A DNA stretch of 52,378 nucleotides from Candidatus Nanoarchaeia archaeon (GCA_028715295.1 JAQUSD010000003.1:1-52378), one strand, 5' to 3'; shown: positions 1,673 through 21,507, counted from the stretch's first letter. Numbers and translations are program-made. The notes: generated from the sequence alone by a model not told the origin.

Positions 1673-2824
1673 TTATAACCTTTTTTCAAGAGCAATAAGA
1701 TTATGTAATTTGTTATTTTTAATAAGCAGGGTATCTTCAACCCGGATTCCATATCTGTTTGGGAAATATAATCCCGGCTCAACAGCAAAAATCATGTTAT
1801 TTTTAAAAGTTTCATTATTGAACATTCCAATACTTGGGTTTTCATGTATGTCCAAGCCAACACCATGTCCAAGCTGATGTATAAACCCCTCTTTAGTTTT
1901 CTCATCCTTCCTGTAAGTCATATGTCCTTTTGATTCAAAAAATGAACACGCCCCATCAAAAACGTCCTTTATCTGTACATCTTCAAGTATCTTATCGGCA
2001 ACATAATCGTATGTGTTTATAACATCACTGTAGACTTTTCTGACTTCTTTATCAACATTACCTATTACAATTGTGCGGGTCATGTCTGTAAAATAAAGGC
2101 TTTCATGACAACGAGGATATAAATCAATAACTATTGGTGAATGAGATTTAATAGGAACACAATCATCTCCTTTATAGTGCATATTCGAAGATTTTGGGCC
2201 TGAAGCAACAATCATATCGTCCGTATTTTCAAGCCCTTCAATAACCATGTTAATCTTGATGTATTTTTTGACATCGCCAACAGTAACCTTTTCATTGTTT
2301 TTATAAACAAAATTAGAATCTGTCTTAGAGTCTTTGAAGTAGTCAATTGTTTTCTGCATAACTTTTGAAGTTCTTTTTGCTGTATCCTTCATAAATGATA
2401 TCTCCTCATCATCTTTTGTAGCCCTCGCAATAGAGACGGGATTTATTTCAGGATAATCAATACCTATCCCATTAGACTTCATCCTGTCAAATAATTTTCC
2501 TGGAACAGAACCAAACGCAGAAAATTTTTCAATGCCCTCCTCTTCCATTATTCTTTTAATACAATTCATATAAGCGTCTATTCTGCCAAACTCCCTTGTT
2601 TTTGAAATTATATCATAATCAGTATAGTATCTTACATCACCGGAGTACTCTTTTTCAGGCCATGTAAGAAGCACAGGTTTTTTACCAATAGTTTTTATAA
2701 CAAATGAAGAAGAAGTTACCTTGTTCTTTGTGAGGTAATATATATTTGTATCATTGAACTTTCCATGGAGGATAATAGCTTCAACACCCATCTGCCCCAT
2801 AAACTCATCAAGTTCTTTTAACAT
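1673..2824 (-). CDS. Xaa-Pro peptidase, M24B family
   Basis: Metal ligands in DLYPR, TDMTRT, HQLGHGVGLDIHE, EPGLY, RVED. Confidence 0.92.
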   Translation of the reverse strand: MLKELDEFMGQMGVEAIILHGKFNDTNIYYLTKNKVTSSSFVIKTIGKKPVLLTWPEKEYSGDVRYYTDYDIISKTREFGRIDAYMNCIKRIMEEEGIEKFSAFGSVPGKLFDRMKSNGIGIDYPEINPVSIARATKDDEEISFMKDTAKRTSKVMQKTIDYFKDSKTDSNFVYKNNEKVTVGDVKKYIKINMVIEGLENTDDMIVASGPKSSNMHYKGDDCVPIKSHSPIVIDLYPRCHESLYFTDMTRTIVIGNVDKEVRKVYSDVINTYDYVADKILEDVQIKDVFDGACSFFESKGHMTYRKDEKTKEGFIHQLGHGVGLDIHENPSIGMFNNETFKNNMIFAVEPGLYFPNRYGIRVEDTLLIKNNKLHNLIALEKRL

Positions 2825-2876
2825 ACAGATAAAAGTGATAATAAACTTAATAAAACTATGTTACACACAAAGTAAC

Positions 2877-3686
2877 ATGAATAGAATAATTGACTTTCAC
2901 ACTCATTTAGCATTGCAAGCTGAAACATACTCCAAAGTTCTGAAAAAATATAATATAGAAACAGCAGTATGCATACCTTATGACTTTGGAGAGTTTACAT
3001 TCGAACAACTCCTTCATGAATTAAATAATAAACCTGAAGAGTGGGCAAATGGAGTACTCCCAAAATCAGGAAATTACATCAAAAATGTTCTGCAAAGACT
3101 CATCAATATAAATCTTAGATTTCTTGGAGAGATAAAATCCAAAAAAAATATTATCCCAGCGCCATGGATTAGCCCTGAATGTGATGGGCTTGAAGATTTT
3201 ATTGAAAATCCAGAAATCAAAATAATAAAATTTATTCCTGTGCTGGATAATGCAACAAAAGATTATTACACACAAAAAATAATTCCTTATGTTAAACATG
3301 CGGTTGATAATGATAAACTAATAATGATACACACGGGATGGAGGGCAAAAGTAAAACCAATAAGCAAACTGGCCGAACAGTTCCCCCAAGGAAAATTTGT
3401 AATAGCACATATGAAAGAAGACGATGACTTTATGGGACACGATAGGTTCGCTGTTTTAAAGGATAATAAAAATGTATATGTTGAAACATCTTATGGACAA
3501 GGGCCTCATAGAATAGAAACGTATGTTAAGGAGGGTTTTGGTAAAAGAATATTATTCGGTTCAGATTTCAGAACATCAACATCTTCTCTTGAATGGCAGA
3601 TTGGGATGATTAACCTTTCAGAAATAAGTGAAGAGGAAAAACAAGACATATTATACAACAACGCAAAGAAACTTCTAAAAATCTAA
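2877..3686 (+). CDS. Amidohydrolase-family (TIM-barrel) metallohydrolase
   Basis: IDFHTH, IHTG, AHM, ILFGSDF. Start moved to ATG 2877. Confidence 0.85.
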   Translation: MNRIIDFHTHLALQAETYSKVLKKYNIETAVCIPYDFGEFTFEQLLHELNNKPEEWANGVLPKSGNYIKNVLQRLININLRFLGEIKSKKNIIPAPWISPECDGLEDFIENPEIKIIKFIPVLDNATKDYYTQKIIPYVKHAVDNDKLIMIHTGWRAKVKPISKLAEQFPQGKFVIAHMKEDDDFMGHDRFAVLKDNKNVYVETSYGQGPHRIETYVKEGFGKRILFGSDFRTSTSSLEWQIGMINLSEISEEEKQDILYNNAKKLLKI

Positions 3687-4210
3687 ATCTTTCCTATCCA
3701 GTCAACAAAGCCGTATTTAGGACTCTTTAAACCTTTTAACGCTTTTTCAAGAGTTTCTTTTTGTGTCCCCGTTGTTATAATTTCACACGCACGGTGTTTT
3801 TTTTCAAGAGCTTCTATTAAACAAACATCAACAGCCTCAGCCTCAACATTCACTTTTATTTTTGCAGAAGAATAACCCCTCTTAAATAATCTTTTTCTCA
3901 ATATATCAGGAGAACATCTTGTTACAAAACAAATATCAACATATTTTTTATTTATATTGTGAATCAAATGAGAAGAAACCACCAGTTTGTTTTTTGATTT
4001 TTTAATTAAATCCTCAACCTTTTTTTTGAATTTATTAATATCAATAACATCACAATCCCCCAAAAAATCCCTTTTTATAATTAATACTTTATTCTTTTTG
4101 ATAAAATCGTGGATATCAATAAAATCATATTTTAATTTTTTAGCAAGATTTTTTCCAAGAGTTTTCTTTCCTGTGCCCGGGGTTCCTGTTATTATAATCG
4201 CTTTCATCAT
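3683..4210 (-). CDS. Archaeal adenylate kinase, AK6/Fap7 family
   Basis: ITGTPGTGKKT P-loop, SSHLIH, LRKRLFKRGY, NVEAE. Confidence 0.85.
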   Translation of the reverse strand: MMKAIIITGTPGTGKKTLGKNLAKKLKYDFIDIHDFIKKNKVLIIKRDFLGDCDVIDINKFKKKVEDLIKKSKNKLVVSSHLIHNINKKYVDICFVTRCSPDILRKRLFKRGYSSAKIKVNVEAEAVDVCLIEALEKKHRACEIITTGTQKETLEKALKGLKSPKYGFVDWIGKI

Positions 4211-4815
4211 ATATCTATAATAACCCCATTCTTACCTACATTTATTATTTTTGTTCTTCCTATCCTATCTGTAAGTCCGGCGGTTTCGTGTATGTGTCCG
4301 CATAAGCATAAATCAGGCTGAAGTTCTTCAATGGCCTCTCTAACACCTTCACTCCCAGCAGGAACTCCCAAATCATCAACCTTTGTATCAAAAGGAGGAG
4401 CATGAGTCACCATTATTTTTTTATTAAGATTTTTTATTATTTCATGGCTGTATTTTAATTTATTTTTTGTATATGCATCATCAAGCTGGAACAAACCAAT
4501 ATTCGCCCCTCCGCACCCAAAAAAACCAACATCATTTTTTACATGTGTTTTGCAGTGAATGTTTTTGATTAAAGGTTTGTATAATGCTGAAAGAAATTCA
4601 ACAGTAGCGTCAGTTTCATGATTTCCTGGAATGATAAGGGTTTCAATACCATTGTCAGCAAGAAGTCCAACCATGTTGTCAGCATCAAAATCACTCAAAA
4701 GAATATCACCGCAGAGAACTACTACATCAACTTTATTCTCCCCGGCTCTTTTTACAATCCGCTCTATTGCTTTTCTATCTCCATGAATGTCGCTTGCAGC
4801 TAATATCTTTGTCAT
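4207..4815 (-). CDS. Metallophosphoesterase (Icc/calcineurin-like)
   Basis: SDIHG, CGD, GNHE, THAPP, GHIHE. Confidence 0.9.
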   Translation of the reverse strand: MTKILAASDIHGDRKAIERIVKRAGENKVDVVVLCGDILLSDFDADNMVGLLADNGIETLIIPGNHETDATVEFLSALYKPLIKNIHCKTHVKNDVGFFGCGGANIGLFQLDDAYTKNKLKYSHEIIKNLNKKIMVTHAPPFDTKVDDLGVPAGSEGVREAIEELQPDLCLCGHIHETAGLTDRIGRTKIINVGKNGVIIDI

Positions 4816-4840
4816 TTTAAAAGCACCTTCTGTTATGTTT

Positions 4841-6130
4841 TTAAGCTTTTTGTTTATTTTTTAATTTGACTTCTTTAATACCCAACATATATTCCTGAAG
4901 AACTTTTGGTATTCTAAAACCCTCATTTGTTTGATAATTTTCAATAATACAGCATATTGTTCTTTGTATTGCAACAGCAGTAGCATTAAGTGTGTGTATA
5001 TATTCAGATTTTAAATGAGGCTCGGGGCGGTACTTTATACCTGCTCTTCTAGACTGATAATCAGTGCAGTTGCTACATGAACAAAGTTCTCTATATTTCC
5101 CCTGCCCAGGAAACCATCCCTCTAAGTCATATTTTTTAGAAGCAACAACACCCAAATCCCCAGTACATATATTCACAATCCTGTAAGGTATTTTAAGGGC
5201 TTTGTAAAGTTCCTCGGCATTGTTTATCAATTCTTCATGAAACGTCCAGGAATCTTCTGGTTTTGAGAAAATAAACTGTTCGATTTTATCAAACTGGTGA
5301 ACCCTGAATATCCCTTTTGTATCCTTCCCATGAGAGCCAGCTTCTTTTCTAAAACAGGGACTCACACCCGCGTATTTAAGAGGAAGCTTTTCTTTTTCAA
5401 TTATTTCATCCATATGCATTGAACCAAGTGGATGTTCAGCAGTTGCAATAAGATGCAAATCCTCTCCTTCTACTTTGTATATTACATCTTCAAAATCAGA
5501 CAGCGGAACCATACCCTCCATAGCTTTTCTTTTAATCATGAAAGGAGGCTCAATAAGTTCATAGCCCTTTTTGAATAAATGTTCAAGAGCAAATCTCTGC
5601 AGAGCCAAATTGAGAAGCACAAGTTCATTTTTAAGATAATAAAATCTTGAACCGGAAACCTTTGCAGCCCTTTCAATATCAGCAATCCCCAGACCTTCAA
5701 GTATTTCAGTACTGCTTTTTGGATTAAAATCAAATTCAGGAAATTTACCCCATTTTCTTATTTCAACATTTTCACTGTCATCAGAACCATAAGGAACACT
5801 TTCATGGATCAGATTTGGAAGAAGCTTTCTAAGTTCATTTACCCTCTCCTCAAATTTTACAACCTTAATCTCTATTTTATTTATTTTATCTGTAATCTCC
5901 CTTGTTTCCTTTATTTTTGCTTCTTTATCTTTTTGGGAAACACCTCCAAGACTTCTTGAAATAGCATTTCTTTTTGCTTTGAGTTTTTCAGCTTCCTGCA
6001 AGGCGACTCTCCACTTTTTATCATAATCAAGCAAATCATCAAGCATTTTTATTATTGAAGGATTTTTTCTTCTTTCAAAATTAGCTCTCACAAAATCTGT
6101 TTTATCTCTTATTAAGTTCATGTCCAGCAT
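4841..6130 (-). CDS. serS: Seryl-tRNA synthetase
   Basis: N-terminal coiled coil; LIATAEHPL, FRKEAG, GIFRVHQFDKIE, ELCSCSNCTDYQSRR, HTLNAT. Confidence 0.98.
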   Translation of the reverse strand: MLDMNLIRDKTDFVRANFERRKNPSIIKMLDDLLDYDKKWRVALQEAEKLKAKRNAISRSLGGVSQKDKEAKIKETREITDKINKIEIKVVKFEERVNELRKLLPNLIHESVPYGSDDSENVEIRKWGKFPEFDFNPKSSTEILEGLGIADIERAAKVSGSRFYYLKNELVLLNLALQRFALEHLFKKGYELIEPPFMIKRKAMEGMVPLSDFEDVIYKVEGEDLHLIATAEHPLGSMHMDEIIEKEKLPLKYAGVSPCFRKEAGSHGKDTKGIFRVHQFDKIEQFIFSKPEDSWTFHEELINNAEELYKALKIPYRIVNICTGDLGVVASKKYDLEGWFPGQGKYRELCSCSNCTDYQSRRAGIKYRPEPHLKSEYIHTLNATAVAIQRTICCIIENYQTNEGFRIPKVLQEYMLGIKEVKLKNKQKA

Positions 6131-7527: not shown

Positions 7528-8008
7528 TGAAATTAAGTCTGTAATTGAAAATCTCAGAAATATTGATACTTCACTTAAACTAGTTGCAGAAGGGAGTTTA
7601 CATATTACTCTTGCATTTCTCGGAGAAATCTCAGAGTCTCAGAAAGATGAGATTTTGCAGTTATTAAACGAAATCAACCACAACACCCTTTTTCAGGCAG
7701 AAATGAAAGGTTTGGAAGCAATAAGTCCTCAGTTTTTAAGAGTAATCTCTGTAGCTATAAATTCAGAAGAACTTGAAAAAACAAGAACAGAACTCGTTGA
7801 AAAGTTAAATAATTTAAAAATTAAAGCAGATAGTCATCCAGCACATTTAACATTAGCAAGAACGAGAACGCAGTTAAAGAAAAAAGAACTATTGCAATAT
7901 ATCAACGACAACAGGAACAAGTCATTCGGAACATTTCAGATAAGTAAATTAAGTTTAAAGAAATCAACATTAACACCTAAAGGCGCAATATACAAAGATT
8001 TGAATTAA
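7490..8008 (+). CDS. thpR: RNA 2',3'-cyclic phosphodiesterase (2H phosphoesterase)
   Basis: MRAFIAVD, HITLAFLG, HLTLAR, STLTPKGAIY. Start at ATG 7490; overlaps the MazG gene by 38 nt. Confidence 0.92.
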   Translation: MRAFIAVDVPVNNEIKSVIENLRNIDTSLKLVAEGSLHITLAFLGEISESQKDEILQLLNEINHNTLFQAEMKGLEAISPQFLRVISVAINSEELEKTRTELVEKLNNLKIKADSHPAHLTLARTRTQLKKKELLQYINDNRNKSFGTFQISKLSLKKSTLTPKGAIYKDLN

Positions 8009-12256: not shown

Positions 12257-14257
12257 ATGAAAAAAGGAGAAATGTCATCTTTAGATTTAATGGCTGTAAT
12301 AAATGAAATTAAAGAACTGCTTACAGGAGCAAAGCTCCAAAAGGTATATCAGTCTGAAAAAGGAGAATTTTATTTTTACTTTTATAAACAAAGAGAATAT
12401 GTTCTGCATATAATATCAGGAGAGATGATGCATTTAACCAATTATAAAAAAGAATTCCCGCAAGTACCCCCACATTTTTGCATGTTCTTAAGAAAATATC
12501 TAAAAAACGCAGTCCTTTTGAAAATAGTCCAGCCAAAATCCCAAAGAATTGCTGAACTTCATTTTAAGACCTCTAATGAAGAACCATACATCTTAATTTT
12601 TGAACTTTTTTCAAAAGGCAACATAGTTTTATGCGATTCTAATCACATAATAATACAACCTTTGTTATTCCAGAAATGGGCAAGCAGAACAATAAAGCCA
12701 AAGGAAAAATATATTTACCCTCCAACCACAACGCCTGATTTAAGAAGTCTTGACGAAGCAAAATTCATAGAACTTATGTCAAAATCAGAGAAAGCAGACG
12801 CAGTGCGTTTTTTAGCAATAGATATTGGGTTGGGAGGTGTTTATTCTGAATTTATTCTTTCAATTTCAGGAATTGACAAGTATGAATTACCAGATAAAAT
12901 TAACAAAAAAACAGCTTCAAAGCTTTACAATGAACTTATGAAACTTGTTGTAAAAATCGCAACAGGAGATACTGAACCAAACATAATACACTCAAATGGG
13001 TTGCCGTTGTTCGCATCACCAGTTTATCTTGGAAAAACAAATTTAACCGAGTTTAATTCATTTAATGATGCAGTAGACGAATTTTTTGCAAAAGATGAAA
13101 AAACAAAAGAAAATCTAGAAAAAACAAAAAAAACCAATTTAAGGGTAAACGAGTATGTTAAGAGATATGAAGAACAGAAAAAAACCGTTGAAGAATACGA
13201 AAAAAAATCAAAAGTGATGAAATCAGAAGCCGAACTTCTCATGAGAAACAAGTTTGTAATCCAGAATATAATAAGCAAGATACTTTCTTCAAGAAAAAGC
13301 GGATATTCATGGGAAGATATATTACTTAGAGTAAAACAGGAAAAAGAAGCGGGTGTTGATGAAGCCCAAATTATTAAACTAATTGAACCCCATCTCGGGA
13401 AAATAATTATTGATGTTGAAGGAAAAGACCATGAATTTGATTTGCACGATGATGTTGGGTATGTAATAAATGAAAAGTATGAAGATTCTAAAAAATTAGA
13501 AGCAAAAGTTGAAGGGGCCAAATCAGCAATGCTTGAAACTAAAACAAAAATAGAACAGATAAAAAAAGAAGAAGAATCTTCTCCAGTAAAAGAATCTTCG
13601 CTTAAAAAAATAGAGAAAAAAACACCAGCAAGATGGTATGAAAATTATAGGTGGTTTATTTCAACAGACAATTATTTGGTAGTTTCAGGAAAAGATGCTT
13701 CACAAAACGAAATTTTAATAAGAAAATATATGGAATTAAATGATAAAGTGTTCCATGCGGACATCCACGGTTCCCCATTTACAATTGTGAAATCAAAAGA
13801 AAAAAAAATACCTGAAAATACCCTAAAAGAAGCAGCAATACAGACTGCCTCTTATTCAAAAGCGTGGAAAGAGGGGCTAGGAAATGTTGATGTTTATTGC
13901 GTTGAGCCCATACAGGTTAAAAAAAGTGGACCTTCAGGGGAGTATCTTGCAAGAGGCTCTTTTATGATACATGGCAAGAAAAATTATTTTAATAATACTG
14001 TGCTTGAAATAGCTGTTGGTGTACTTATAAAAGACAGCAAATACCAGATTATCTCAGGTCCTTATGAAGCTATAAAAAAACATTCAAGATATTTTGTCAG
14101 GCTTTCTCCTGGACAACAAGACGCTAAAATCCTTGGTTCTGAGGTTTTAACTAAATTAAAGCTTAAGGTTTATGGGAATGATGCGGGCGTCTTAGAGATG
14201 ATTAAGCCTTCTGATATAGAGCCGTTTATTCCAGGAGGCTCAAGATTATTATCCTGA
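12257..14257 (+). CDS. rqcH: NFACT-family ribosome quality control protein (RqcH/Rqc2)
   Basis: SSLDL, FCMFLRKYL, ELFSKGNIVL, long coiled coil, WYENYRWF, GKDASQNE, FHADIHGSP, GEYLARGSFMIHG. Confidence 0.93.
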   Translation: MKKGEMSSLDLMAVINEIKELLTGAKLQKVYQSEKGEFYFYFYKQREYVLHIISGEMMHLTNYKKEFPQVPPHFCMFLRKYLKNAVLLKIVQPKSQRIAELHFKTSNEEPYILIFELFSKGNIVLCDSNHIIIQPLLFQKWASRTIKPKEKYIYPPTTTPDLRSLDEAKFIELMSKSEKADAVRFLAIDIGLGGVYSEFILSISGIDKYELPDKINKKTASKLYNELMKLVVKIATGDTEPNIIHSNGLPLFASPVYLGKTNLTEFNSFNDAVDEFFAKDEKTKENLEKTKKTNLRVNEYVKRYEEQKKTVEEYEKKSKVMKSEAELLMRNKFVIQNIISKILSSRKSGYSWEDILLRVKQEKEAGVDEAQIIKLIEPHLGKIIIDVEGKDHEFDLHDDVGYVINEKYEDSKKLEAKVEGAKSAMLETKTKIEQIKKEEESSPVKESSLKKIEKKTPARWYENYRWFISTDNYLVVSGKDASQNEILIRKYMELNDKVFHADIHGSPFTIVKSKEKKIPENTLKEAAIQTASYSKAWKEGLGNVDVYCVEPIQVKKSGPSGEYLARGSFMIHGKKNYFNNTVLEIAVGVLIKDSKYQIISGPYEAIKKHSRYFVRLSPGQQDAKILGSEVLTKLKLKVYGNDAGVLEMIKPSDIEPFIPGGSRLLS

Positions 14258-14355
14258 AAGTCTCAAAGTCTCACTAAAATTTGAGACTTTTGAGACTTTG
14301 ATAAAAAGAAAGTCTCAAAGTCTCACTAAAATTTGAGACTTTTGAGACTTTGATA
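14256..14355. repeat. Two identical 48-bp units (period 52 bp), each an imperfect palindrome of four AGTCTCA/TGAGACT motifs
   Basis: GAAAGTCTCAAAGTCTCACTAAAATTTGAGACTTTTGAGACTTTGATA at 14256-14303 and 14308-14355, separated by AAAA. Confidence 0.98.
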
Positions 14356-14363
14356 CCTTACAA

Positions 14364-14380
14364 CAGAAAGCAATATATAT
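14364..14380 (+). promoter_or_regulatory. Putative BRE/TATA promoter of the wHTH gene
   Basis: CAGAAAG-C-AATATATAT ending 22 nt before ATG 14402. Confidence 0.6.
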
Positions 14381-14401
14381 CCTTGATTCATTTATTTTTT
14401 T

Positions 14402-14887
14402 ATGAGTTATGAAGAAGCTGAAGAACAAAAACAAAAAAAGACTGAGATACACCTACACCAAAGTGATTTAGGAAGCCTTTTCTCGCACATATCAAAACAA
14501 CTAAGTCTTATGGATGAAAAGCAAAAAATGCTAATGGAAGGCCAGATAAATATGATTGAACATCAAATAATGACTATTTCTGCGCTTAAAAAACACGACG
14601 AAAAGATAAATACAAACGTTTCAAATGTCAATAAAAATGTTTTATCTGGGTTTGAAGCCTTGGAAAACCTTTCAAATCTTAAAAACAAAGTTGAAAAAGA
14701 ATTTAAGAGCGAATTGGGTAAGCAAATGCTTGAGATTTTAAATCAAAAAAAAGAAATGACAACCTCTGAAATAATTGAAGCCTTTAAAAAATATGCTTCA
14801 AGAGCAACAATATTCAGAACTTTAAGCGAATTAACAGAAAGAAACCTTGTGGAAAGAGTTCACGGAAAGATTTTAATCAAAAATTGA
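14402..14887 (+). CDS. Coiled-coil + C-terminal winged helix-turn-helix DNA-binding protein
   Basis: Helical heptad-like residues ~25-100; C-terminus MLEILNQKKEMTTSEIIEAFKKYASRATIFRTLSELTERNLVERVHGKILI fits the wHTH pattern. Confidence 0.8.
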   Translation: MSYEEAEEQKQKKTEIHLHQSDLGSLFSHISKQLSLMDEKQKMLMEGQINMIEHQIMTISALKKHDEKINTNVSNVNKNVLSGFEALENLSNLKNKVEKEFKSELGKQMLEILNQKKEMTTSEIIEAFKKYASRATIFRTLSELTERNLVERVHGKILIKN

Positions 14888-15327
14888 ACACACATAATGA
14901 TAAAAATAGACATTTTGAAATTTCTACAAACGAAAAATATAATTAATAGTTCACCCAAAAAATAAATCATATCTTTGAAAAATCATAATTAAAACATTTA
15001 ATTTTAAAAATATCTGCCCCAAAATAAAATCATGAATAATATCCCACTAAAATTAAAATTTATTTATTGGATATATTAAAAATAAAATAAAATATTTTTT
15101 TCATAATTATTCAGAATAAAACCATAATTTAATTGATAATAATGATTTTAAACACACCGCATAAGTTTTTTAAATAAAAATAAATAATCCAGTTAAAAAA
15201 TAATAAACTTTTAAAAGAAGAATATCAAAATATTTTATTATTTGAGTTTGATGGACAAAGAAAAAACATAAAAGTAATAATCACTATTACCTAAGAACGA
15301 CTTTTAAAATTTTTAAATTAAATTTAA
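14888..15327. other. 440-bp extremely AT-rich non-coding tract between convergent genes (candidate DNA-unwinding element)
   Basis: Hand count 73 G+C in 440 nt (~17%); 31-nt pure A/T run at 15071-15101; no ORF in the supplied track. Confidence 0.7.
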
Positions 15328-18015
15328 TTAATTTTTCCAAAATTCCCTCGTCCTCAAATAATTTTTCTCTCTCCTAATTATCTCTTTAATCAATTCGTCT
15401 TCATTTTCATAATCTCTGCATAGAATTCTATAAGCATTTGTCGCCCCAACACCCACACCAGCAAAAATTAAACAGGTTTTTTTGCCGTGTGATAAATATA
15501 AATGTGCTTTTTTTTCTAAATCTTTAGCTATTTTGATATCTTCACCAATAATTTTTTTATTTTTTACGATTTTTTTAACTATTTTTTCAAAATCTTTATA
15601 TTCAGGGAAGAAGGTTATCAATCCCGAATCACATTTTATACAGTTTATCTTATCTTTTGCAGAAATATAAGTATTTTTTCCAAGGTATTGTCCACATTTT
15701 ATACAATAAAACCTAAACACTTTATTTTTTAATCGGTTTTTTACATGTTCTACCACTTCCTTGTAAGCATTTTCAGGGTTTACAAATTCATTTAAATGGA
15801 ATTTTAATGAAAATTCACCAAATGGAGAGACATTACCATCATTTCTTTCAACCTTTATCAGCTTTTTCCTAATTTTTTCAAGTATTTTCTCAGAATTTTC
15901 AATATCCATATGCTTTTTTATTTCTTCATTGAAGCTTTCTTCATAAACTATGCTGTCTTTATAAATTTCTATCAGCTTTTTCACAATCCTCTTATTGATT
16001 TCAGCATTTTTTTTCAATACCCCGCAACGTTTTGCAACATTTACAAAAGTCCAGTTAAAATTTGAATTGTTTTTTAGAGACAGCTTCAAAATCTCTTTAA
16101 GCCACCCTTCACCTATGTTTAAAAGTGAGGCATTAATAGCATCAAAATTTCTGTCAGGGAGTCTGATTACAGCGCCGTAAGCATCAGATTTCAAAGCGAT
16201 AGAAATTCCGTATTTTGATGATAGAAGTGCTGTAAGAGCTGTATAGAGCGTTTTGTTGATTTTAGTTCCAAAAGATGAATGGACTACTAAATATTCCCCA
16301 TTTATCTCTAAAAAAATTCTATCAACGGAGTGAAGGAAATATTTTTTTTGTCTATCAATGAACTCGTCTTTAATTTTGCTTCTTAATTCATCTGCTGTTT
16401 TTGCTATCAAATATGGAACAGGAATATTTTCTCCATCCCACACAGGAATATTATTGCTTGTTGCACCAATTCTTATTACAAATATCCTATCTCCATCAAG
16501 CTTTGTGACTCTCCAAGGCTCCCCTCTACATACAAACTGCTTTCCAAGTTCAATATTCTCTGCTACAAACTCTTCGTCTAAAACACCTATTTTTGAGTTA
16601 TTCTGCTCATTTATAACAAAATATGTTTTTATTGAGGGAATCATGCTTAAATTGTCATAATAATACAACATGCCTTTTCTTGTTTTGCCAATAACATCCC
16701 CAAATTCTCCAATTAGATTAACCTGTTTCATGAAATCAAGAATTTTCCTAAATTCTTCTTTAGACAAATTCCTATAAACATGAGATTTTTTTACTGAGTT
16801 ATAAACAAACTCTATTTTTGGGTCTCTGAAATCCATACAATATCCTACAATCCCATGGATAAGCACATCATACGGCTTTTCAATAATCTCAAGAGTCTCA
16901 AGATTTTTGAGATTTTGGACAATTGAAACAGCTTCAAGGTAATCATGCGTATTGGTTGTTAATAAAATCCCTTTTGAAACCCTGTCTTTTGAATGTCCTG
17001 AACGTCCAACCCTTTGAATCAAACGCGTAACTTCTCTTGGTGAAGTAAACTGGACAACAGTTTCTATATCTCCCACATCAATACCTAATTCCATAGAAGA
17101 AGTGCAGACTATTGCTTTAATTTCTCCTTTTCTAAACCCGTCTTCTGTTGAAAGCCTACTCTCTTTACTCAGGCTTGAATGATGAACTTCTACTTTTTCA
17201 TTTATCCTTTTGAGTTTTGAACCTAAAAGCTCAGCAGTCTGCCTTGTATTTACAAATACAAGGGTTGATTTTGAGCAGTTTATTATTTCATTTATCTTTC
17301 TAACAGCCCACGCAACTTCTTTACCAACCCCTTGTTTTTCAGCATATTCTAAATCCTCTCCTTCAGGATTTGCTTTAAGAACTTCAATGTCATACTTCTT
17401 GTCAGCATCAAGTCTTACAGTCTCACAGTTTTGAGACAAATAATCCCTTACACCGGAAATATTGCTCACAGTTGCTGAAAGCCCTATTTTCTGGAAGTTT
17501 GGAGATAAAAGTCTCAATCTTTCCAATCCAATGCTTAATTGGGCCCCTCTTTTATCCCCAGCCAATTCGTGAATTTCATCTATAATAACATACTTCAGCT
17601 TTTTCAGATGTTCTCTAAGCCGTTTTCCAATCAATAATGCCTGTACAGTTTCAGGAGTTGTAATCATTATTGAGGGAGGATTTTTACTTTGTTTAACTCT
17701 CTCGCTTTGTTTTGTATCCCCATGCCTGACATCAATTTTAATACCCAATTTTACTCCCCATTGAACAATCCTGTCAAATATGTCTCTGTTGAGAGCTTTA
17801 AGTGGAGTAATATAAAGGCATTTTATACCTTCTTCCTTATCATTTATTAAGTCATTAAACACCCCAATCATACTGGCTTGTGTTTTTCCATAACCTGTCG
17901 GAGCAGTGATAAGAACATCCTTCCCTTCATGGACATGTTTAAATGAGACTTTCTGGTACTCAAATAAGTCCCCATATTCTTCTCCAATTATTTCTGTGAT
18001 TTTAGGATGTAACAT
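15328..18015 (-). CDS. lhr: Lhr-core ATP-dependent DEAH/DEIH helicase
   Basis: APTGYGKT, DEIH, GLSAT, HHSSLS, CTSSMELGID, QRVGRSGH; C-terminal CxxC...CxxC. Confidence 0.95.
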   Translation of the reverse strand: MLHPKITEIIGEEYGDLFEYQKVSFKHVHEGKDVLITAPTGYGKTQASMIGVFNDLINDKEEGIKCLYITPLKALNRDIFDRIVQWGVKLGIKIDVRHGDTKQSERVKQSKNPPSIMITTPETVQALLIGKRLREHLKKLKYVIIDEIHELAGDKRGAQLSIGLERLRLLSPNFQKIGLSATVSNISGVRDYLSQNCETVRLDADKKYDIEVLKANPEGEDLEYAEKQGVGKEVAWAVRKINEIINCSKSTLVFVNTRQTAELLGSKLKRINEKVEVHHSSLSKESRLSTEDGFRKGEIKAIVCTSSMELGIDVGDIETVVQFTSPREVTRLIQRVGRSGHSKDRVSKGILLTTNTHDYLEAVSIVQNLKNLETLEIIEKPYDVLIHGIVGYCMDFRDPKIEFVYNSVKKSHVYRNLSKEEFRKILDFMKQVNLIGEFGDVIGKTRKGMLYYYDNLSMIPSIKTYFVINEQNNSKIGVLDEEFVAENIELGKQFVCRGEPWRVTKLDGDRIFVIRIGATSNNIPVWDGENIPVPYLIAKTADELRSKIKDEFIDRQKKYFLHSVDRIFLEINGEYLVVHSSFGTKINKTLYTALTALLSSKYGISIALKSDAYGAVIRLPDRNFDAINASLLNIGEGWLKEILKLSLKNNSNFNWTFVNVAKRCGVLKKNAEINKRIVKKLIEIYKDSIVYEESFNEEIKKHMDIENSEKILEKIRKKLIKVERNDGNVSPFGEFSLKFHLNEFVNPENAYKEVVEHVKNRLKNKVFRFYCIKCGQYLGKNTYISAKDKINCIKCDSGLITFFPEYKDFEKIVKKIVKNKKIIGEDIKIAKDLEKKAHLYLSHGKKTCLIFAGVGVGATNAYRILCRDYENEDELIKEIIRREKNYLRTREFWKN

Positions 18016-18113
18016 AAGTTGTTTTAGATATATGCCTTTATTTATAAAGGTTATCCAAAATAAAAACCTCCAAAAACCTAATCTTTTTATTCAGCCAAGC
18101 TGAATAATATGTT

Positions 18114-19394
18114 ATGGAATATGATGAGGTTTTTAAAAGAGTTCTGAAAGAGATTAATCCAAAACAATCAGAGATAAAAAAAGCAAACCAGGTTAGCATA
18201 GAACTTAAAAAAATTCTTGAAAAATCCGCAAAAGAACTTAAGATTGATTGTGAGATTTTTCTTGGCGGTTCAATTGCAAAGGGAACCTGGCTTTCAGGAA
18301 AGCACGATATCGACTTTTTCATACGCCTTAACTCAAAATACAATGATTTATCACAATACGCAGGTATGGTGATTTCCAATGCATTATCAACCAAAAATTC
18401 AAAATTCATTATTTCAAAAGTCCATGGCTCAAGAGATTATTATAAGATGGATTACAGGGGTTTTGAAGTTGAATTTGTTCCTGTACTCAAAATCTCAAAA
18501 GTCTCAGACTTTTTAAATATAACAGACGCCTCGCCCTTCCATGTTAAATATGTTCAGAAAGAACTAAAAAAGAACCCTAAACTAAAAGAAGAAATACTTC
18601 TGCTCAAGCAGTTTTCAAAAGCAAACGGCTTTTATGGGGCTGAAACATGGATTTCCGGTTTTTCAGGTTATGTTACAGAACTTTTGATACTCCATTACGG
18701 TTCTTTTTTTAATCTTCTTAAATCAGCATTAGGATGGAAGGGAAAGATTTACATTGATACAAAGAAGTATTACAAAAGTCTTGGAGAAGCTATTAAGAAG
18801 CTGGACAAGTCAAAAACACGAGGGCCTTTAGTTTTAATTGATCCCGTACAAAAAGAAAGAAATGCAGGAGCGAGCATAAATCAAAAAGCACTTGATAAAT
18901 TCATAAACTCAGCTGAAAAATTCCTTGAAAAACCTTTGGAAAACATGTTCAAAAAGGAAAAGATAACAATAAAAGACTTAGAAAAAACAGCAGAAAGCAA
19001 TAACCATGAGCTGATATATTTAGTTTATAAAATTAAAAGCAAAGCAAAAAAAGATGTTTTCTTTGCAAAAATGCAGAGAAATTTAAGAAAATTCAGCGCA
19101 TTTATTGAAAAAGAGAATGTAAAAGTGTATAACAAAGGAATTCTGCCGTCTGAAACTAACCTTTATTTGTGGCTTGAAACAGAAAAAATAACCTCTCTTA
19201 AACCTTATGTTCAGATTGGGCCTTCAGAAACCCGCAAAGATGCGGTCAAAAACTTTAATTTAAAATGGAAAAACCATCCAAGAACAATCAAGGGACCGTA
19301 TATTAAAGACGGAAAAGTCTGCTTTGATGTAAAACCAAGATATAGAATCTTAGACACCTTAATAAAAGAAGCAAAAAAATTCTCTAATTTATAA
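18114..19394 (+). CDS. cca: CCA-adding enzyme, archaeal class I
   Basis: GSIAKGTWLSGKHDIDFF, SPFH, YGAE, GFSGYVTELL, LIDPVQKERNA. Confidence 0.96.
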   Translation: MEYDEVFKRVLKEINPKQSEIKKANQVSIELKKILEKSAKELKIDCEIFLGGSIAKGTWLSGKHDIDFFIRLNSKYNDLSQYAGMVISNALSTKNSKFIISKVHGSRDYYKMDYRGFEVEFVPVLKISKVSDFLNITDASPFHVKYVQKELKKNPKLKEEILLLKQFSKANGFYGAETWISGFSGYVTELLILHYGSFFNLLKSALGWKGKIYIDTKKYYKSLGEAIKKLDKSKTRGPLVLIDPVQKERNAGASINQKALDKFINSAEKFLEKPLENMFKKEKITIKDLEKTAESNNHELIYLVYKIKSKAKKDVFFAKMQRNLRKFSAFIEKENVKVYNKGILPSETNLYLWLETEKITSLKPYVQIGPSETRKDAVKNFNLKWKNHPRTIKGPYIKDGKVCFDVKPRYRILDTLIKEAKKFSNL

Positions 19395-20078
19395 TTAAAG
19401 CATTTTAGTTAAGTCAAGAAGCAGAACCTCTTTAATATCTACGTGCTTCATAAACTTTTCAGTTGATTCTCCCGCCCCCCCAACAAGTTCATTGAATGCT
19501 GGGACAAGAATAATCTTCTTCTTTACACCATGAAACTCGCACTCACCAATAAACCACGCTTTATTTGGGGTTATTGATTCAACCCGGTCCCTTAACTTGT
19601 ATTCCGGGTGCACATGTCCAGCAATTATAATCTTCACTTTACTCATCATTTCCTTGCTTGGGAATGCATGTCCATGTATAAATCCAAAGCCACCCAGAGC
19701 CTGCTCCTTGATTATTTTAACTTTGACTTTTTCTTTCCTTGCTAAGTCTTCAAGCCCGGCATCATGGTTGCCTCTTACAATAATTATTTCTTTGAAAACG
19801 CTTGAAAGCTTTTCAATGAAAAAGGGGATTTCATTCTGCTCCTGCCAGCTTATCAAGGGTATGCTGTGTTTAAAGTCTCCAAGTATCATGAGACTTTGAG
19901 ACTTTGTTCTTTTACCTATTTTAATGAGTTTTTCAAGCATTTTAGAGGTTTGAGACACAACCGTTATGCCTCTACGTCTTAATTCTTTCTCAACACCAAT
20001 ATGCATGTCAGCAACAATAAGGGTTTTTCCTATACAAAAGGAAGCAGTATTTTTGTTAAATCTTACCTTCATAATCAT
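19395..20078 (-). CDS. Metallophosphoesterase, COG1407-like (Lhr-associated MPE type)
   Basis: ADMHIG, LGDFKH, GNHD, HGH, GHVHP, PAFN. Confidence 0.9.
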   Translation of the reverse strand: MIMKVRFNKNTASFCIGKTLIVADMHIGVEKELRRRGITVVSQTSKMLEKLIKIGKRTKSQSLMILGDFKHSIPLISWQEQNEIPFFIEKLSSVFKEIIIVRGNHDAGLEDLARKEKVKVKIIKEQALGGFGFIHGHAFPSKEMMSKVKIIIAGHVHPEYKLRDRVESITPNKAWFIGECEFHGVKKKIILVPAFNELVGGAGESTEKFMKHVDIKEVLLLDLTKML

Positions 20079-20377
20079 ACATATCTCAGGACAAGTTTTC
20101 TTGAAAACTCACAGTCCTCTTTTGAAACCCTGCCCTTTTCAAGAACAATGTTTAGGATAACACCAATTCTTTTTATCTCGTCTTCTGTAAACTTATAACC
20201 GCTTGCTTCTGAAAGATGTTTAAAGTCTTCTAAATCAGAAATTACTCCTGTTTTCTCAGCCATCTTAATTTTTAATGTTTTTAAATACAGGAAACTCGCA
20301 GAAGTATATTTTTTAGCTTTAAAATATTCTTCAGCCATTGCAAAATAATCAACATTTTTATTTTCAATATCTTCCAT
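20075..20377 (-). CDS. Small helical hypothetical protein (TPR- or HEPN-like first helix pair)
   Basis: YFAMAEEYFKAKKYTSASFLYLKTL; ATGA overlap with the downstream phosphoesterase. Confidence 0.6.
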   Translation of the reverse strand: MEDIENKNVDYFAMAEEYFKAKKYTSASFLYLKTLKIKMAEKTGVISDLEDFKHLSEASGYKFTEDEIKRIGVILNIVLEKGRVSKEDCEFSRKLVLRYV

Positions 20378-20431
20378 ATCTTTTTCTAACCAAGCAATAT
20401 CTATTAAATCTTTTGTTATTATTTATTTTTT

Positions 20432-20935
20432 ATGGATTTAGAGCTGATGTGCACTTCAGGTAAATGTGGAATTTGCTGTTTTTATTATTACAAAAACAAA
20501 GGATACCATATTGCTTTTGAAAAAACAGCAAATACAGACAAAAAATTAAGTGAATTTATAGAAAAAAACAAAGACAAGATAATGGAAAACATTTCAGAAA
20601 TTGGGACCAAATCTTATTTTACAGCAATAAGAAAAGACGCTTATATTCTAACAAAACACGGGGAACGCTTTTATCCATGCTCTTTTTTAGACATAACTAG
20701 AAATGAAAACACAAAAACAATTGAAACCATCCTGTGTTCAATACATGAAAGTGATTACCGTCCGGATGTATGCAAAAACAAAGAAACTTCTAAAAACAGC
20801 CAAATTGAACCTTGCTGGGCTTTATTTTTCAAGGAGATTGCATGTATTGTTGTGAGTAAAAAACTATACAAATTAAATGACAATTTAATGGATTTATGCA
20901 GGTACTACGCGCATCTTTATGAAACATTTAAATAA
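20432..20935 (+). CDS. YkgJ-like CxxCxxCC Zn/Fe-chelating protein
   Basis: CTSGKCGICC ... PCSFL ... CSIH ... RPDVC. Confidence 0.72.
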   Translation: MDLELMCTSGKCGICCFYYYKNKGYHIAFEKTANTDKKLSEFIEKNKDKIMENISEIGTKSYFTAIRKDAYILTKHGERFYPCSFLDITRNENTKTIETILCSIHESDYRPDVCKNKETSKNSQIEPCWALFFKEIACIVVSKKLYKLNDNLMDLCRYYAHLYETFK

Positions 20936-20958
20936 ATCAGTATTATACCTTGTAATTT

Positions 20959-21507
20959 ATGACAGAAGAACAGCAGTGTCCATTTTGTGCAATAGCGTCG
21001 GGAAATATTCCCTCAAAAGTCCTTTACGAAGATGATGCTGTTGTGGCTTTTCTTGATATAAATCCCGCAAATGCAGGACACACAATTATTATCCCAAAGA
21101 AGCACTACGCTTTTCTTTATCAGGTTCCAACTGAAGAAATGGTTAAATTATTTGCAGTAGCAAAAGCTCTTTCAGTTGCTGTTGTTCAGGCGGGCGGTGC
21201 ACAGGGCATGAATATGATTTATTCAATGGGCCCTGCAGCAGGACAGAGGGCCCCCCACATGATGATTCATTTAATTCCTAGGTTTGAAAACGATAAAGTG
21301 GTTATTTCATGGGATTCTGCACCAGCAAGCGAGGAAAACCTGGTAAACATGGCTGATAAAATAAAGTCAACTTTAAGAAGCGGGGGAGTATCAACCCCAG
21401 AAACAATTGAAGCACCAAAACCAGAGCCCAAGCCTTCTGAACCTGAAAAACAAGATGAAGAAGAAAAGCCAAAAATCACATGGGTCCCTCCAAAAAGAGT
21501 CCCTTAA
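20959..21507 (+). CDS. HIT-family protein with degenerate triad and Pro/Glu-rich tail
   Basis: CPFCAI, FLDINP, GHTIIIPKKH, GQRAPHMMIHLIPR. Confidence 0.9.
   Translation: MTEEQQCPFCAIASGNIPSKVLYEDDAVVAFLDINPANAGHTIIIPKKHYAFLYQVPTEEMVKLFAVAKALSVAVVQAGGAQGMNMIYSMGPAAGQRAPHMMIHLIPRFENDKVVISWDSAPASEENLVNMADKIKSTLRSGGVSTPETIEAPKPEPKPSEPEKQDEEEKPKITWVPPKRVP

Follow-up and report, generated by a model that had tools for sequence, protein, structure and literature searches.

Intragenic satellites of a half-site array beside an orphan winged-helix gene in a Candidatus Nanoarchaeia archaeon

Organization of the Locus

The 52,378-nt stretch of Candidatus Nanoarchaeia archaeon DNA analyzed here (GCA_028715295.1, JAQUSD010000003.1:1-52378; "the window") is contig C2 of a 777-kb, 42-contig assembly, to which all genome-wide counts below refer. 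Between rqcH and lhr it carries a short array built from GTCTCA/TGAGAC half-sites, followed by the gene for a small orphan winged helix-turn-helix (wHTH) protein; further copies of the motif, here called satellites, are clustered inside nearby genes, including lhr, cca and a metallophosphoesterase gene (mpe). These satellites are non-random and keep the half-site architecture of the array, and they may be auxiliary binding sites of an array-bound protein. The main features are:

14256-14355, no strand assigned: master array, two identical 48-nt units with a 52-bp period (tandem-repeat finder TRF, repeat search and sequence reading)
14402-14887, plus strand: monocistronic gene for an orphan 161-aa coiled-coil-like/winged-HTH protein (Pfam HTH_DeoR), the candidate motif binder
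14888-15327, no strand assigned: 440-bp non-coding gap between the convergent wHTH and lhr genes, of uncertain membership in the system
15328-18015, minus strand: lhr, Lhr-type helicase, 895 aa (Pfam DEAD, Helicase_C, WH_Lhr, DEAD_assoc), host to five hexamers
18114-19394, plus strand: cca, archaeal class-I CCA-adding enzyme, 426 aa (Pfam tRNA_NucTransf2, NTP_transf_2, CAA_C)
19395-20078, minus strand: mpe, calcineurin-like metallophosphoesterase (MPE), 227 aa (Pfam Metallophos; aligned with 10 relatives)

The Pfam domains bear out the gene identities assigned to lhr, cca and the phosphoesterase in an earlier note made from the sequence. The lhr and cca genes form a divergent pair with a shared promoter region.

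Each array unit reads AAAGTCTCA-AAGTCTCA, an 8-nt spacer, and TGAGACTT-TTGAGACTTT: two tandem half-sites facing two inverted ones, for a total of eight perfect half-sites and eight hexamers in the whole array. It starts inside the stop codon of rqcH (NFACT/RqcH) and ends 16 bp before a sequence resembling a B recognition element and TATA box, AGAAAGCAATATATA, which lies approximately 25 nt upstream of the ATG of the wHTH open reading frame (ORF); the ORF itself begins 46 bp downstream of the array. As single-stranded DNA, the array folds at -28.7 kcal/mol (z = -8.2).

The 161-aa protein combines a helical (coiled-coil-like) N-terminus of about 100 aa with a C-terminal HTH_DeoR domain (residues 107-156, E=1.3e-7); its matches to the GlpR, Sta1 and Lrs14 HTH families are weak (NCBIfam GlpR, 23 bits vs. 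a cut-off of 300). An AlphaFold2 single-sequence model predicts one long helix from residue 3 to 115, with the HTH at low confidence. No homologue other than itself was found among 5.8 billion clustered proteins, none in 1.8 billion representatives (full phmmer) and none in 40 genomes of the same class, and a PDB sequence search was empty.

Downstream of this gene, no other 300-bp stretch of the assembly is as poor in G+C (14.7%) as one in the gap before lhr, which in AT content surpasses even the DNA unwinding element (DUE) of the replication origin. The gap carries a 12/13 copy of the array center at 15042-15054, TCCCACTAAAATT. It contains no ORF longer than 36 aa and no Rfam family match. 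A rival AT-rich stretch at C32:67607-67706 is an assembly artifact, a scaffold gap of about 100 N flanked by approximately 140 bp of duplicated sequence. Searches for a known RNA in the array or the gap gave merely sub-threshold miRNA-like hairpin matches, and this idea was rejected. So was a mobile or viral origin of the system: there was no match to a viral contig, and the PHROG matches were weak and of a generic HTH kind.

Clustering of the Motif

The window holds 19 copies of GTCTCA/TGAGAC: eight in the array, nine at 16895-19956, and two elsewhere. A manual scan in the earlier note had located the nine at 16895, 17420, 17432, 17511 and 17944 (lhr), 18501 (cca), and 19889, 19897 and 19951 (mpe), with only 7636 and 51364 in the remainder of the window; every position is exact. 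The assembly as a whole has 98 hexamers in 777 kb (0.126/kb). Nine fall within 3,072 bp here, and any other 3,072-bp window of the assembly has at most three. When the 90 non-array hexamers were placed at random, the maximum was usually 3-4 and once 7, and at least nine were reached in none of 20,000 trials.

The same excess appears when the proteins are held constant. Codon-preserving shuffles of lhr, cca and mpe gave a mean of 1.85 hexamers (standard deviation 1.29, maximum 8), and none of 20,000 reached the nine observed. For the exact octamer AAGTCTCA, shuffling the same three genes gave a mean of 0.41 vs. five observed (P=5e-5). Genome-wide there are 28 exact octamers: eight in the array, five at 17509-19904, three on contig C29, and the remaining 12 dispersed across about 720 kb. 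In an unbiased test of hexamer enrichment, GTCTCA was by far the top word of the lhr-cca-mpe block, with nine copies vs. 0.17 expected from the rest of the window. Dinucleotide shuffles, Markov expectations, codon-preserving shuffles and random placement all led to rejection of composition or codon bias as its source. The clustering described in the earlier note goes beyond composition, codon usage or amino-acid sequence: motif density is non-uniform across the genome, and the shuffle fails to explain it.

The accompanying proposal that the motif is scarce elsewhere holds in a milder form. With the clusters removed, there are 77 copies of GTCTCA vs. 111-260 expected, depending on Markov order, which places it among the lowest 3-4% of hexamers; the most avoided words of the genome are GATC and CTAG, and GTCTCA is far from these. 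Words containing GATC or CTAG are extremely rare genome-wide (AGATC, 122 vs. 1,516 expected from dinucleotides), and GCAGC and GCCGC are scarce even against a third-order model. Restriction-modification pressure is probably behind the scarcity of these words.

Shared Half-Site Architecture

Individual satellite sites in the window are:

7549-7571, no strand assigned: degenerate inverted pair AAATCTCA-7 nt-TGATACTT, two 1-mismatch octamers, inside a LigT-like 2H-phosphoesterase gene
7626-7656, plus strand: composite AAATCTCA-GAGTCTCA, 6 nt, TGAGATTTT; tandem plus inverted, 2 mismatches in 18 core nt, in the same LigT-like gene
16885-16916, plus strand: composite AATCTCA-AGAGTCTCA, 7 nt, TGAGATTTT; 2 mismatches in 18, lhr +1100 from the start codon
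17410-17437, plus strand: composite AAGTCTTA-CAGTCTCA, 6 nt, TGAGAC; 1 mismatch in 18, lhr +579
17509-17516, plus strand: single exact octamer AAGTCTCA, lhr +500
17944-17951, minus strand: single exact octamer, reading TGAGACTT on the plus strand, 65 nt inside lhr and nearest to the lhr/cca divergent promoter
18251-18258, minus strand: 1-mismatch octamer AAATCTCA, cca +138; weak, possibly background
18489-18512, plus strand: tandem pair AAAATCTCA-AAAGTCTCA running into the palindrome AAAAGTCTCAGACTTTT; 17/18 to the array right arm, cca +376
19872-19906, no strand assigned: four-half-site composite AAAGTCTCC-AAGTATCA/TGAGACTT-TGAGACTTTG with no central spacer, mpe +173, no indel relative to homologues
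19951-19956, minus strand: single hexamer TGAGAC, mpe +121, formed by Val-Ser-Gln codons

Several of these had been described in the earlier note as reproducing the array, and the descriptions are accurate. Within the 19872-19906 copy, 19889-19905 is an exact 17-nt reverse complement of the left arm of the unit; 18489-18506 agrees with the reverse-complemented right arm at 17 of 18 positions; and the tandem-plus-inverted layout of 17410-17437 and 16885-16916 holds. The earlier note lacks the composite at 7626-7656 with its inverted pair at 7549-7571, the 1-mismatch octamer at 18251, and a locus on contig C29. The satellite zone extends from -6.7 to +5.7 kb around the array, about 13 kb (7.5-20 kb of the contig).

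Whole-genome scans for the arrangement of half-sites, rather than the word itself, lead to the same places. Tandem pairs at the 8- or 9-nt spacing of the array arms, with at most one mismatch in 12 core positions, number 12 genome-wide vs. about two in third-order Markov simulations, and 10 of the 12 are on C2 at 7.6-19.9 kb: five in the array and five at 7628, 16886, 17412, 18492 and 19889. The other two are on C29 and C6. Composites were defined as two tandem half-sites, a gap of 0-10 nt and one inverted half-site (18 core positions); apart from the array, the only ones in the genome with two or fewer mismatches are at 7628, 16886, 17412 and 19875. Three 3-mismatch composites occur elsewhere (C16, C25, C30), vs. 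2.7 expected by chance in simulations. Tandem and inverted half-sites are separated by 6-7 nt at 7628, 16886 and 17412, and by 8 nt in the array; at 19872-19906 inverted half-sites follow at 0 and 8 nt, making a complete four-half-site unit minus the central spacer. The satellites also use a variant, ATCTCA, that is absent from the array. No consistent polarity of sites was seen in the composite scan.

On C29, an exact 18-nt copy of the array left arm, GAAAGTCTCAAAGTCTCA, forms a tandem site at 3455-3480 (minus strand), and a further exact AAGTCTCA, the third octamer of that contig, lies at 4021-4028, about 560 bp away: a second mini-cluster. Both sites are 1.1-1.7 kb into the gene for a 1,032-aa coiled-coil protein (2339-5437), which with its mini-cluster is 1.7 kb from a MinD/ParA-like ATPase gene (911-1711).

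Constraint on DNA Rather than Protein

Motif copies are found on both coding and template strands of their host genes, sense and antisense, and in all three frames, and the peptides encoded at them are unrelated: EISESQKDEIL, QNLKNLETLEI, LSQNCETVRL, KISKVSDF, TKSQSLMILGDF. Since strands, frames and peptides all differ, the constraint is on DNA, and not on protein or mRNA; a shared peptide motif was rejected as the cause on the same grounds.

The mpe site is inside a gap-free, partly conserved segment, TKS..L.ILGD, in the alignment with relatives, and in-frame insertion footprints were rejected for this gene in the absence of any indel. The only satellite coinciding with an indel is lhr 16885-16916 (residues 367-377), at a 2-aa deletion where Lhr is without the "GW" of a K(D/K)GWLE segment that is retained in all three aligned relatives. 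Displacement of conserved residues (lhr KDGWLE to KN--LETLE, cca EAKN to DFLN) was considered as a protein-level cost and rejected by residue count: residues at satellite codons match relatives at 60% vs. 59% in the rest of the genes (P=1), and there is thus no sign of a protein-level cost for the sites.

Lineage Specificity

Three other families of the class share the gene order rqcH, lhr (divergent from) cca, mpe, HIT (positions 12257-21507 here; loci L059, L060 and L061 in the relatives). The rqcH-lhr junction is variable, and in relatives carries genes for YjbQ-like, DUF59-like, DUF1931 histone-like, aminoacyl-tRNA synthetase or UppS proteins; in those three families it has neither an array nor a wHTH gene. 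Bacteria have an lhr-mpe operon, which the lhr-mpe pairing in this archaeal block resembles, with cca inserted between.

The lhr-cca-mpe blocks of these relatives contain 1-2 copies of GTCTCA, a background count, and none of AAGTCTCA. Background counts in genomes that have neither array nor wHTH gene indicate that the satellites arose together with both in this lineage, to which the array-satellite-wHTH system, going by the genomes compared, is specific. This joint appearance is the strongest indirect link between the satellites and the array and orphan gene. The best Lhr match has 37% identity in a metagenome scan and 43-45% among the 5.8 billion proteins.

Octamer Arrays in Bacteria

When 185,579 species genomes were scanned for exact pattern matches, the octamer turned up in bacteria too, in the tandem-plus-inverted arrangement of the array, as (AAGTCKCA)3-4, a loop, and (TGMGACTT)3-4 (L012:506-575, L014:395-468, L013:3690-3740, L009:4550-4620, L011:5815-5870). 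In two Thermoanaerobaculia metagenome-assembled genomes (MAGs; approximately 70% G+C) this palindrome is dispersed in high copy through intergenic DNA (213 and 972 13-mer matches); a Gemmatimonadales MAG and a Bdellovibrionota MAG have one array each. None of these octamer-bearing bacterial genomes contains a homologue of the archaeal wHTH protein. The bacterial neighbors Ku, LigD-PE and DinG raised the possibility of a DNA-repair regulon, which was rejected: the bacterial arrays are high-copy dispersed repeats.

The octamer and its layout are identical in Thermoanaerobaculia and in the archaeal array, but the former have hundreds of dispersed intergenic copies, and the archaeon a single array with intragenic satellites. 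The Thermoanaerobaculia element appears to be an undescribed element of the repetitive extragenic palindrome (REP) type. The likeness may reflect coincidence, descent of the arrays from a common mobile source, or convergence on a DNA shape that is favorable.

Possible Roles of the Array and Its Satellites

One possibility is that the satellites are selected, lower-affinity sites for the protein that occupies the eight-half-site array, the binder most probably being the adjacent orphan coiled-coil/winged-helix protein. It would oligomerize through its long N-terminal helix and load cooperatively on the array, probably regulating itself in the process, as the array is just upstream of its own promoter. 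From there it could bridge to auxiliary composites 2.5-6.6 kb away on either side, gathering the 13-kb satellite zone, and perhaps the C29 locus, into one nucleoprotein body. The likeliest use of such a body would be positional, as a centromere-like or chromosome-organizing landmark. Proximity, a multi-half-site geometry with flexible spacers, independence of gene structure, and an oligomer-prone wHTH neighbor make one bridging protein the most economical explanation, and this reading is tentatively preferred, at somewhat short of an even chance.

All satellites are intragenic, with none in the promoter regions of lhr/cca or the mpe operon, which fits position-agnostic structural sites better than classical operators. 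Half-site arrays beside the promoter of their own binder are the usual build of partition sites and autoregulators (ParR/parC, omega/heptads, AspA, SegB). The mild genome-wide avoidance of GTCTCA also counts for a positional role, with which the position of the C29 mini-cluster near a MinD/ParA-like gene loosely agrees. The comparison to parS/matS-type sites offered in the earlier note survives in part: there are clustered sites in coding DNA, on both strands, in a 13-kb zone plus one small second locus, but no adjacent ParA-type gene, and the protein is outside the ParB, SegB and MatP families. By analogy, positional sites of this kind are plausible, with a regulatory role nearly as likely.

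Several observations weigh against a positional complex. The protein is linked to the motif by adjacency only, and the octamer arrays of bacteria without a wHTH homologue mean that the motif is not exclusive to the archaeal protein. There is no ParA/SegA-type ATPase gene beside the wHTH gene (matches to AAA_31/ParA-MinD are on C31 and C29 only). No satellites lie within 2.4 kb of the array, and the cluster is not centered on it; the satellite median (17944) is instead beside the lhr/cca divergent promoter, and all satellites are in the first 41% of their genes. The replication origin is on a separate contig of the assembly, C25. The closest relatives have no more than 45% identity for Lhr and 48% for MPE, and the absence of any protein-level signature at satellite codons is a further point on this side.

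The position of the median and the first-41% placement favor another role, in which the wHTH protein would be an autoregulated repressor, with auxiliary operators in the 5' parts of the ligT-like, lhr, cca and mpe genes that loop to each other or to the array, or act as roadblocks, co-regulating repair and quality-control genes: a possibility only a little less likely than the positional one. The array abuts the wHTH promoter, the lhr/cca divergent promoter is bracketed by sites at -65 (17944) and +138/+376 (18251, 18489), the HTH is DeoR-like, and auxiliary operators inside genes have familiar precedents in lac O2, gal OI and deo. The host genes share a nucleic-acid repair and quality-control theme (LigT-like protein, whose gene is near 7.6 kb, Lhr, CCA-adding enzyme, MPE), rqcH, topA, mazG and HIT are also in the neighborhood, and lhr-cca-mpe-HIT is a conserved block. 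What is harder to accommodate is that, apart from the array, there are zero sites in promoters or intergenic DNA, the cheapest places to evolve operators, and that some sites are as far as 1.1 kb into lhr or about 430-500 bp past the mpe-operon promoter. Those on C29 are deep inside a coiled-coil gene with no evident repair function, and eight perfect half-sites are excessive for an ordinary operator.

Could the satellites instead be functionless, either a chance cluster or by-products of a local mutational process for which the perfect palindromic array serves as donor, such as conversion of short tracts or templated or template-switch mutation? The 17-18-nt exact identities to array arms at 19889 and on C29 could be copied tracts, the AT-rich gap holds a fragment of the array center, and amino acids at the sites are no more diverged than elsewhere. 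Chance is excluded by three nulls (codon shuffles, tandem and composite simulations, random placement), known template switching acts over tens of bases and not over 2.5-6.6 kb or between contigs, and most satellites are degenerate, with half-site geometry and the ATCTCA variant, unlike copied tracts; they are also fitted into three reading frames without frameshifts or indels. A by-product origin is improbable. Still less support attaches to another reader of the motif, either a DNA-binding or restriction-type enzyme (GTCTC resembles a type IIS word) or an array-derived hairpin RNA that would pair with satellites in mRNAs. The array would form strong hairpins if transcribed, the hexamer is mildly under-represented, and the bacterial arrays manage without the wHTH protein, but if the reader were a diffusible RNA or enzyme, its targets would have no need to be as close to the array as 6.6 kb, several half-sites with variable spacers are what protein oligomers typically use and not what base-pairing requires, both sense and antisense strands carry sites, no Rfam family matches, and GTCTCA is far from the most avoided words; this explanation is quite unlikely.

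The closeness of the array to both a gene for a small DNA-binding protein and the most AT-rich part of the assembly, in a lineage-specific module at a junction holding other genes in relatives, also invites comparison with a non-canonical, Orc1-independent origin or an integrated iteron replicon: the array would be the iterons, the wHTH protein the initiator, the AT tract the unwinding element, and the satellites copy-control or handcuffing sites. A textbook oriC is present, however, on C25, upstream of the only orc1/cdc6, and a replication origin was rejected as the leading idea on this account. The 161-aa single-wHTH protein resembles no Rep, Cdt1/WhiP or Orc family, the whole wHTH gene separates the AT tract from the array, with motif sites on one side only, and a 0.78-Mb genome needs no second origin. 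This is the least probable of the explanations, and very much so. The C25 origin (19890-20230; L008:167-520) combines four direct origin recognition box (ORB) elements, ACCCCTTGATTTCCAGTGGAAC, with a DUE rich in AT and one mini-ORB in inverted orientation that a G-string follows, directly upstream of orc1/cdc6; all five ORB copies and the sole orc1/cdc6 are at C25:19890-21500, and none at the C2 locus.

Returning to a positional complex, its most far-reaching form would be that the orphan protein, the array and the satellites (with the C29 cluster) constitute a previously unknown DPANN system of chromosome partition or organization, independent of ParB, SegB and MatP, with the satellites as a centromere loading and bridging zone. 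This stronger version is conceivable, though rather unlikely as matters stand.

Comparison with Known Systems

To our knowledge, the mode of chromosome organization and segregation in minimal-genome archaea is not known, and no DPANN centromere has been described; SegAB is restricted to some archaeal lineages. A candidate here has the merit of being compact, with a 161-aa protein, a 100-bp array and some eight defined auxiliary sites. Should the satellites be auxiliary operators, the conserved lhr-cca-mpe repair block would be controlled at long range from operators placed only inside genes, which is unusual for an archaeon. Either way, selection at the DNA level would have written a motif into housekeeping genes in three reading frames.

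Some classes of element can be set aside on their defining features. REP elements and bacterial interspersed mosaic elements have many dispersed intergenic copies, and the archaeon a single array. Archaeal origins of the ORB/Orc1 type have both components, and the C2 locus has no ORB and no orc1. In iteron replicons a WH1-WH2 Rep protein acts at iterons adjoining a DUE; here there is a single wHTH, no Rep family match, and an array separated from the AT tract. MatP is a ribbon-helix-helix (RHH) protein with a coiled coil, and its 13-bp matS, GTGACRNYGTCAC, is spread over the approximately 800-kb Ter macrodomain: fold and motif differ, and the scale here is 13 kb. Regulators of the DeoR/GlpR type have an N-terminal HTH_DeoR and a C-terminal DeoRC domain, and this protein a C-terminal HTH_DeoR and no DeoRC.

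Others come closer in layout. At lac O2, gal OI and deo O1/O2/OE, weaker intragenic operator copies flank a promoter and cooperate with the main operator through an oligomeric repressor; the satellites are 2.5-6.6 kb from the array, with no site in a target promoter, and the protein is without a DeoR C-terminal effector domain. The replication terminator protein of Bacillus subtilis, RTP, is a small winged-helix protein with a coiled-coil dimerization helix, paired inverted Ter sites immediately upstream of its own autoregulated gene, and further chromosomal sites, of which some are in genes. Its winged helix is N-terminal, in 122 aa, and Ter sites form two opposed groups, whereas here the HTH is C-terminal and sites have no consistent polarity: a resemblance only. 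In ParR/parC (R1) and omega/heptads (pSM19035), 7-11-bp half-sites, contiguous and direct or inverted, are arranged 8-10 per array and overlap or abut the promoter of the binder, a dimeric protein that polymerizes. Those are plasmid-borne RHH proteins with a motor gene in the operon, and without satellites in neighboring host genes.

For a clustered zone of chromosomal sites, a parallel is found in Caulobacter, where, according to the summary in PMC12284271, seven parS sites occur within about 10 kb (Tran et al. 2018). As in parS clusters, motif copies here are mostly in unrelated genes, on both strands, in a zone of the order of 10 kb, and rare elsewhere, with spurious sites avoided. The protein differs from ParB in having no ParBc CTPase domain or fold (Pfam finds the C-terminal DeoR-like HTH only), and there is no 16-bp parS palindrome and no adjacent parA.

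The closest parallel is the SegAB chromosome segregation system of Sulfolobales (PMC12284271, PMC8682754). By chromatin immunoprecipitation sequencing, SegB sites, the strongest of them, are found just upstream of segAB, with others mostly near the locus and about 83% of them intragenic, and SegB brings about short-range compaction and long-range bridging of DNA (PMC12284271). Both cases have sites upstream of the gene for a small archaeal DNA-binding protein and others mostly nearby and intragenic, and the resemblance is one of function only. SegB is an RHH protein co-transcribed with the ParA-type SegA, and its site is a 13-bp palindrome, TCTAGAsTCTAGA; here an orphan, monocistronic coiled-coil/wHTH protein with no adjacent ATPase is paired with 8-9-bp half-sites in tandem and inverted order, in a genome that strongly avoids CTAG. 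A nucleation array with nearby intragenic auxiliary sites is thus of a known general kind; what is new is that it is built from an orphan protein and a new motif.

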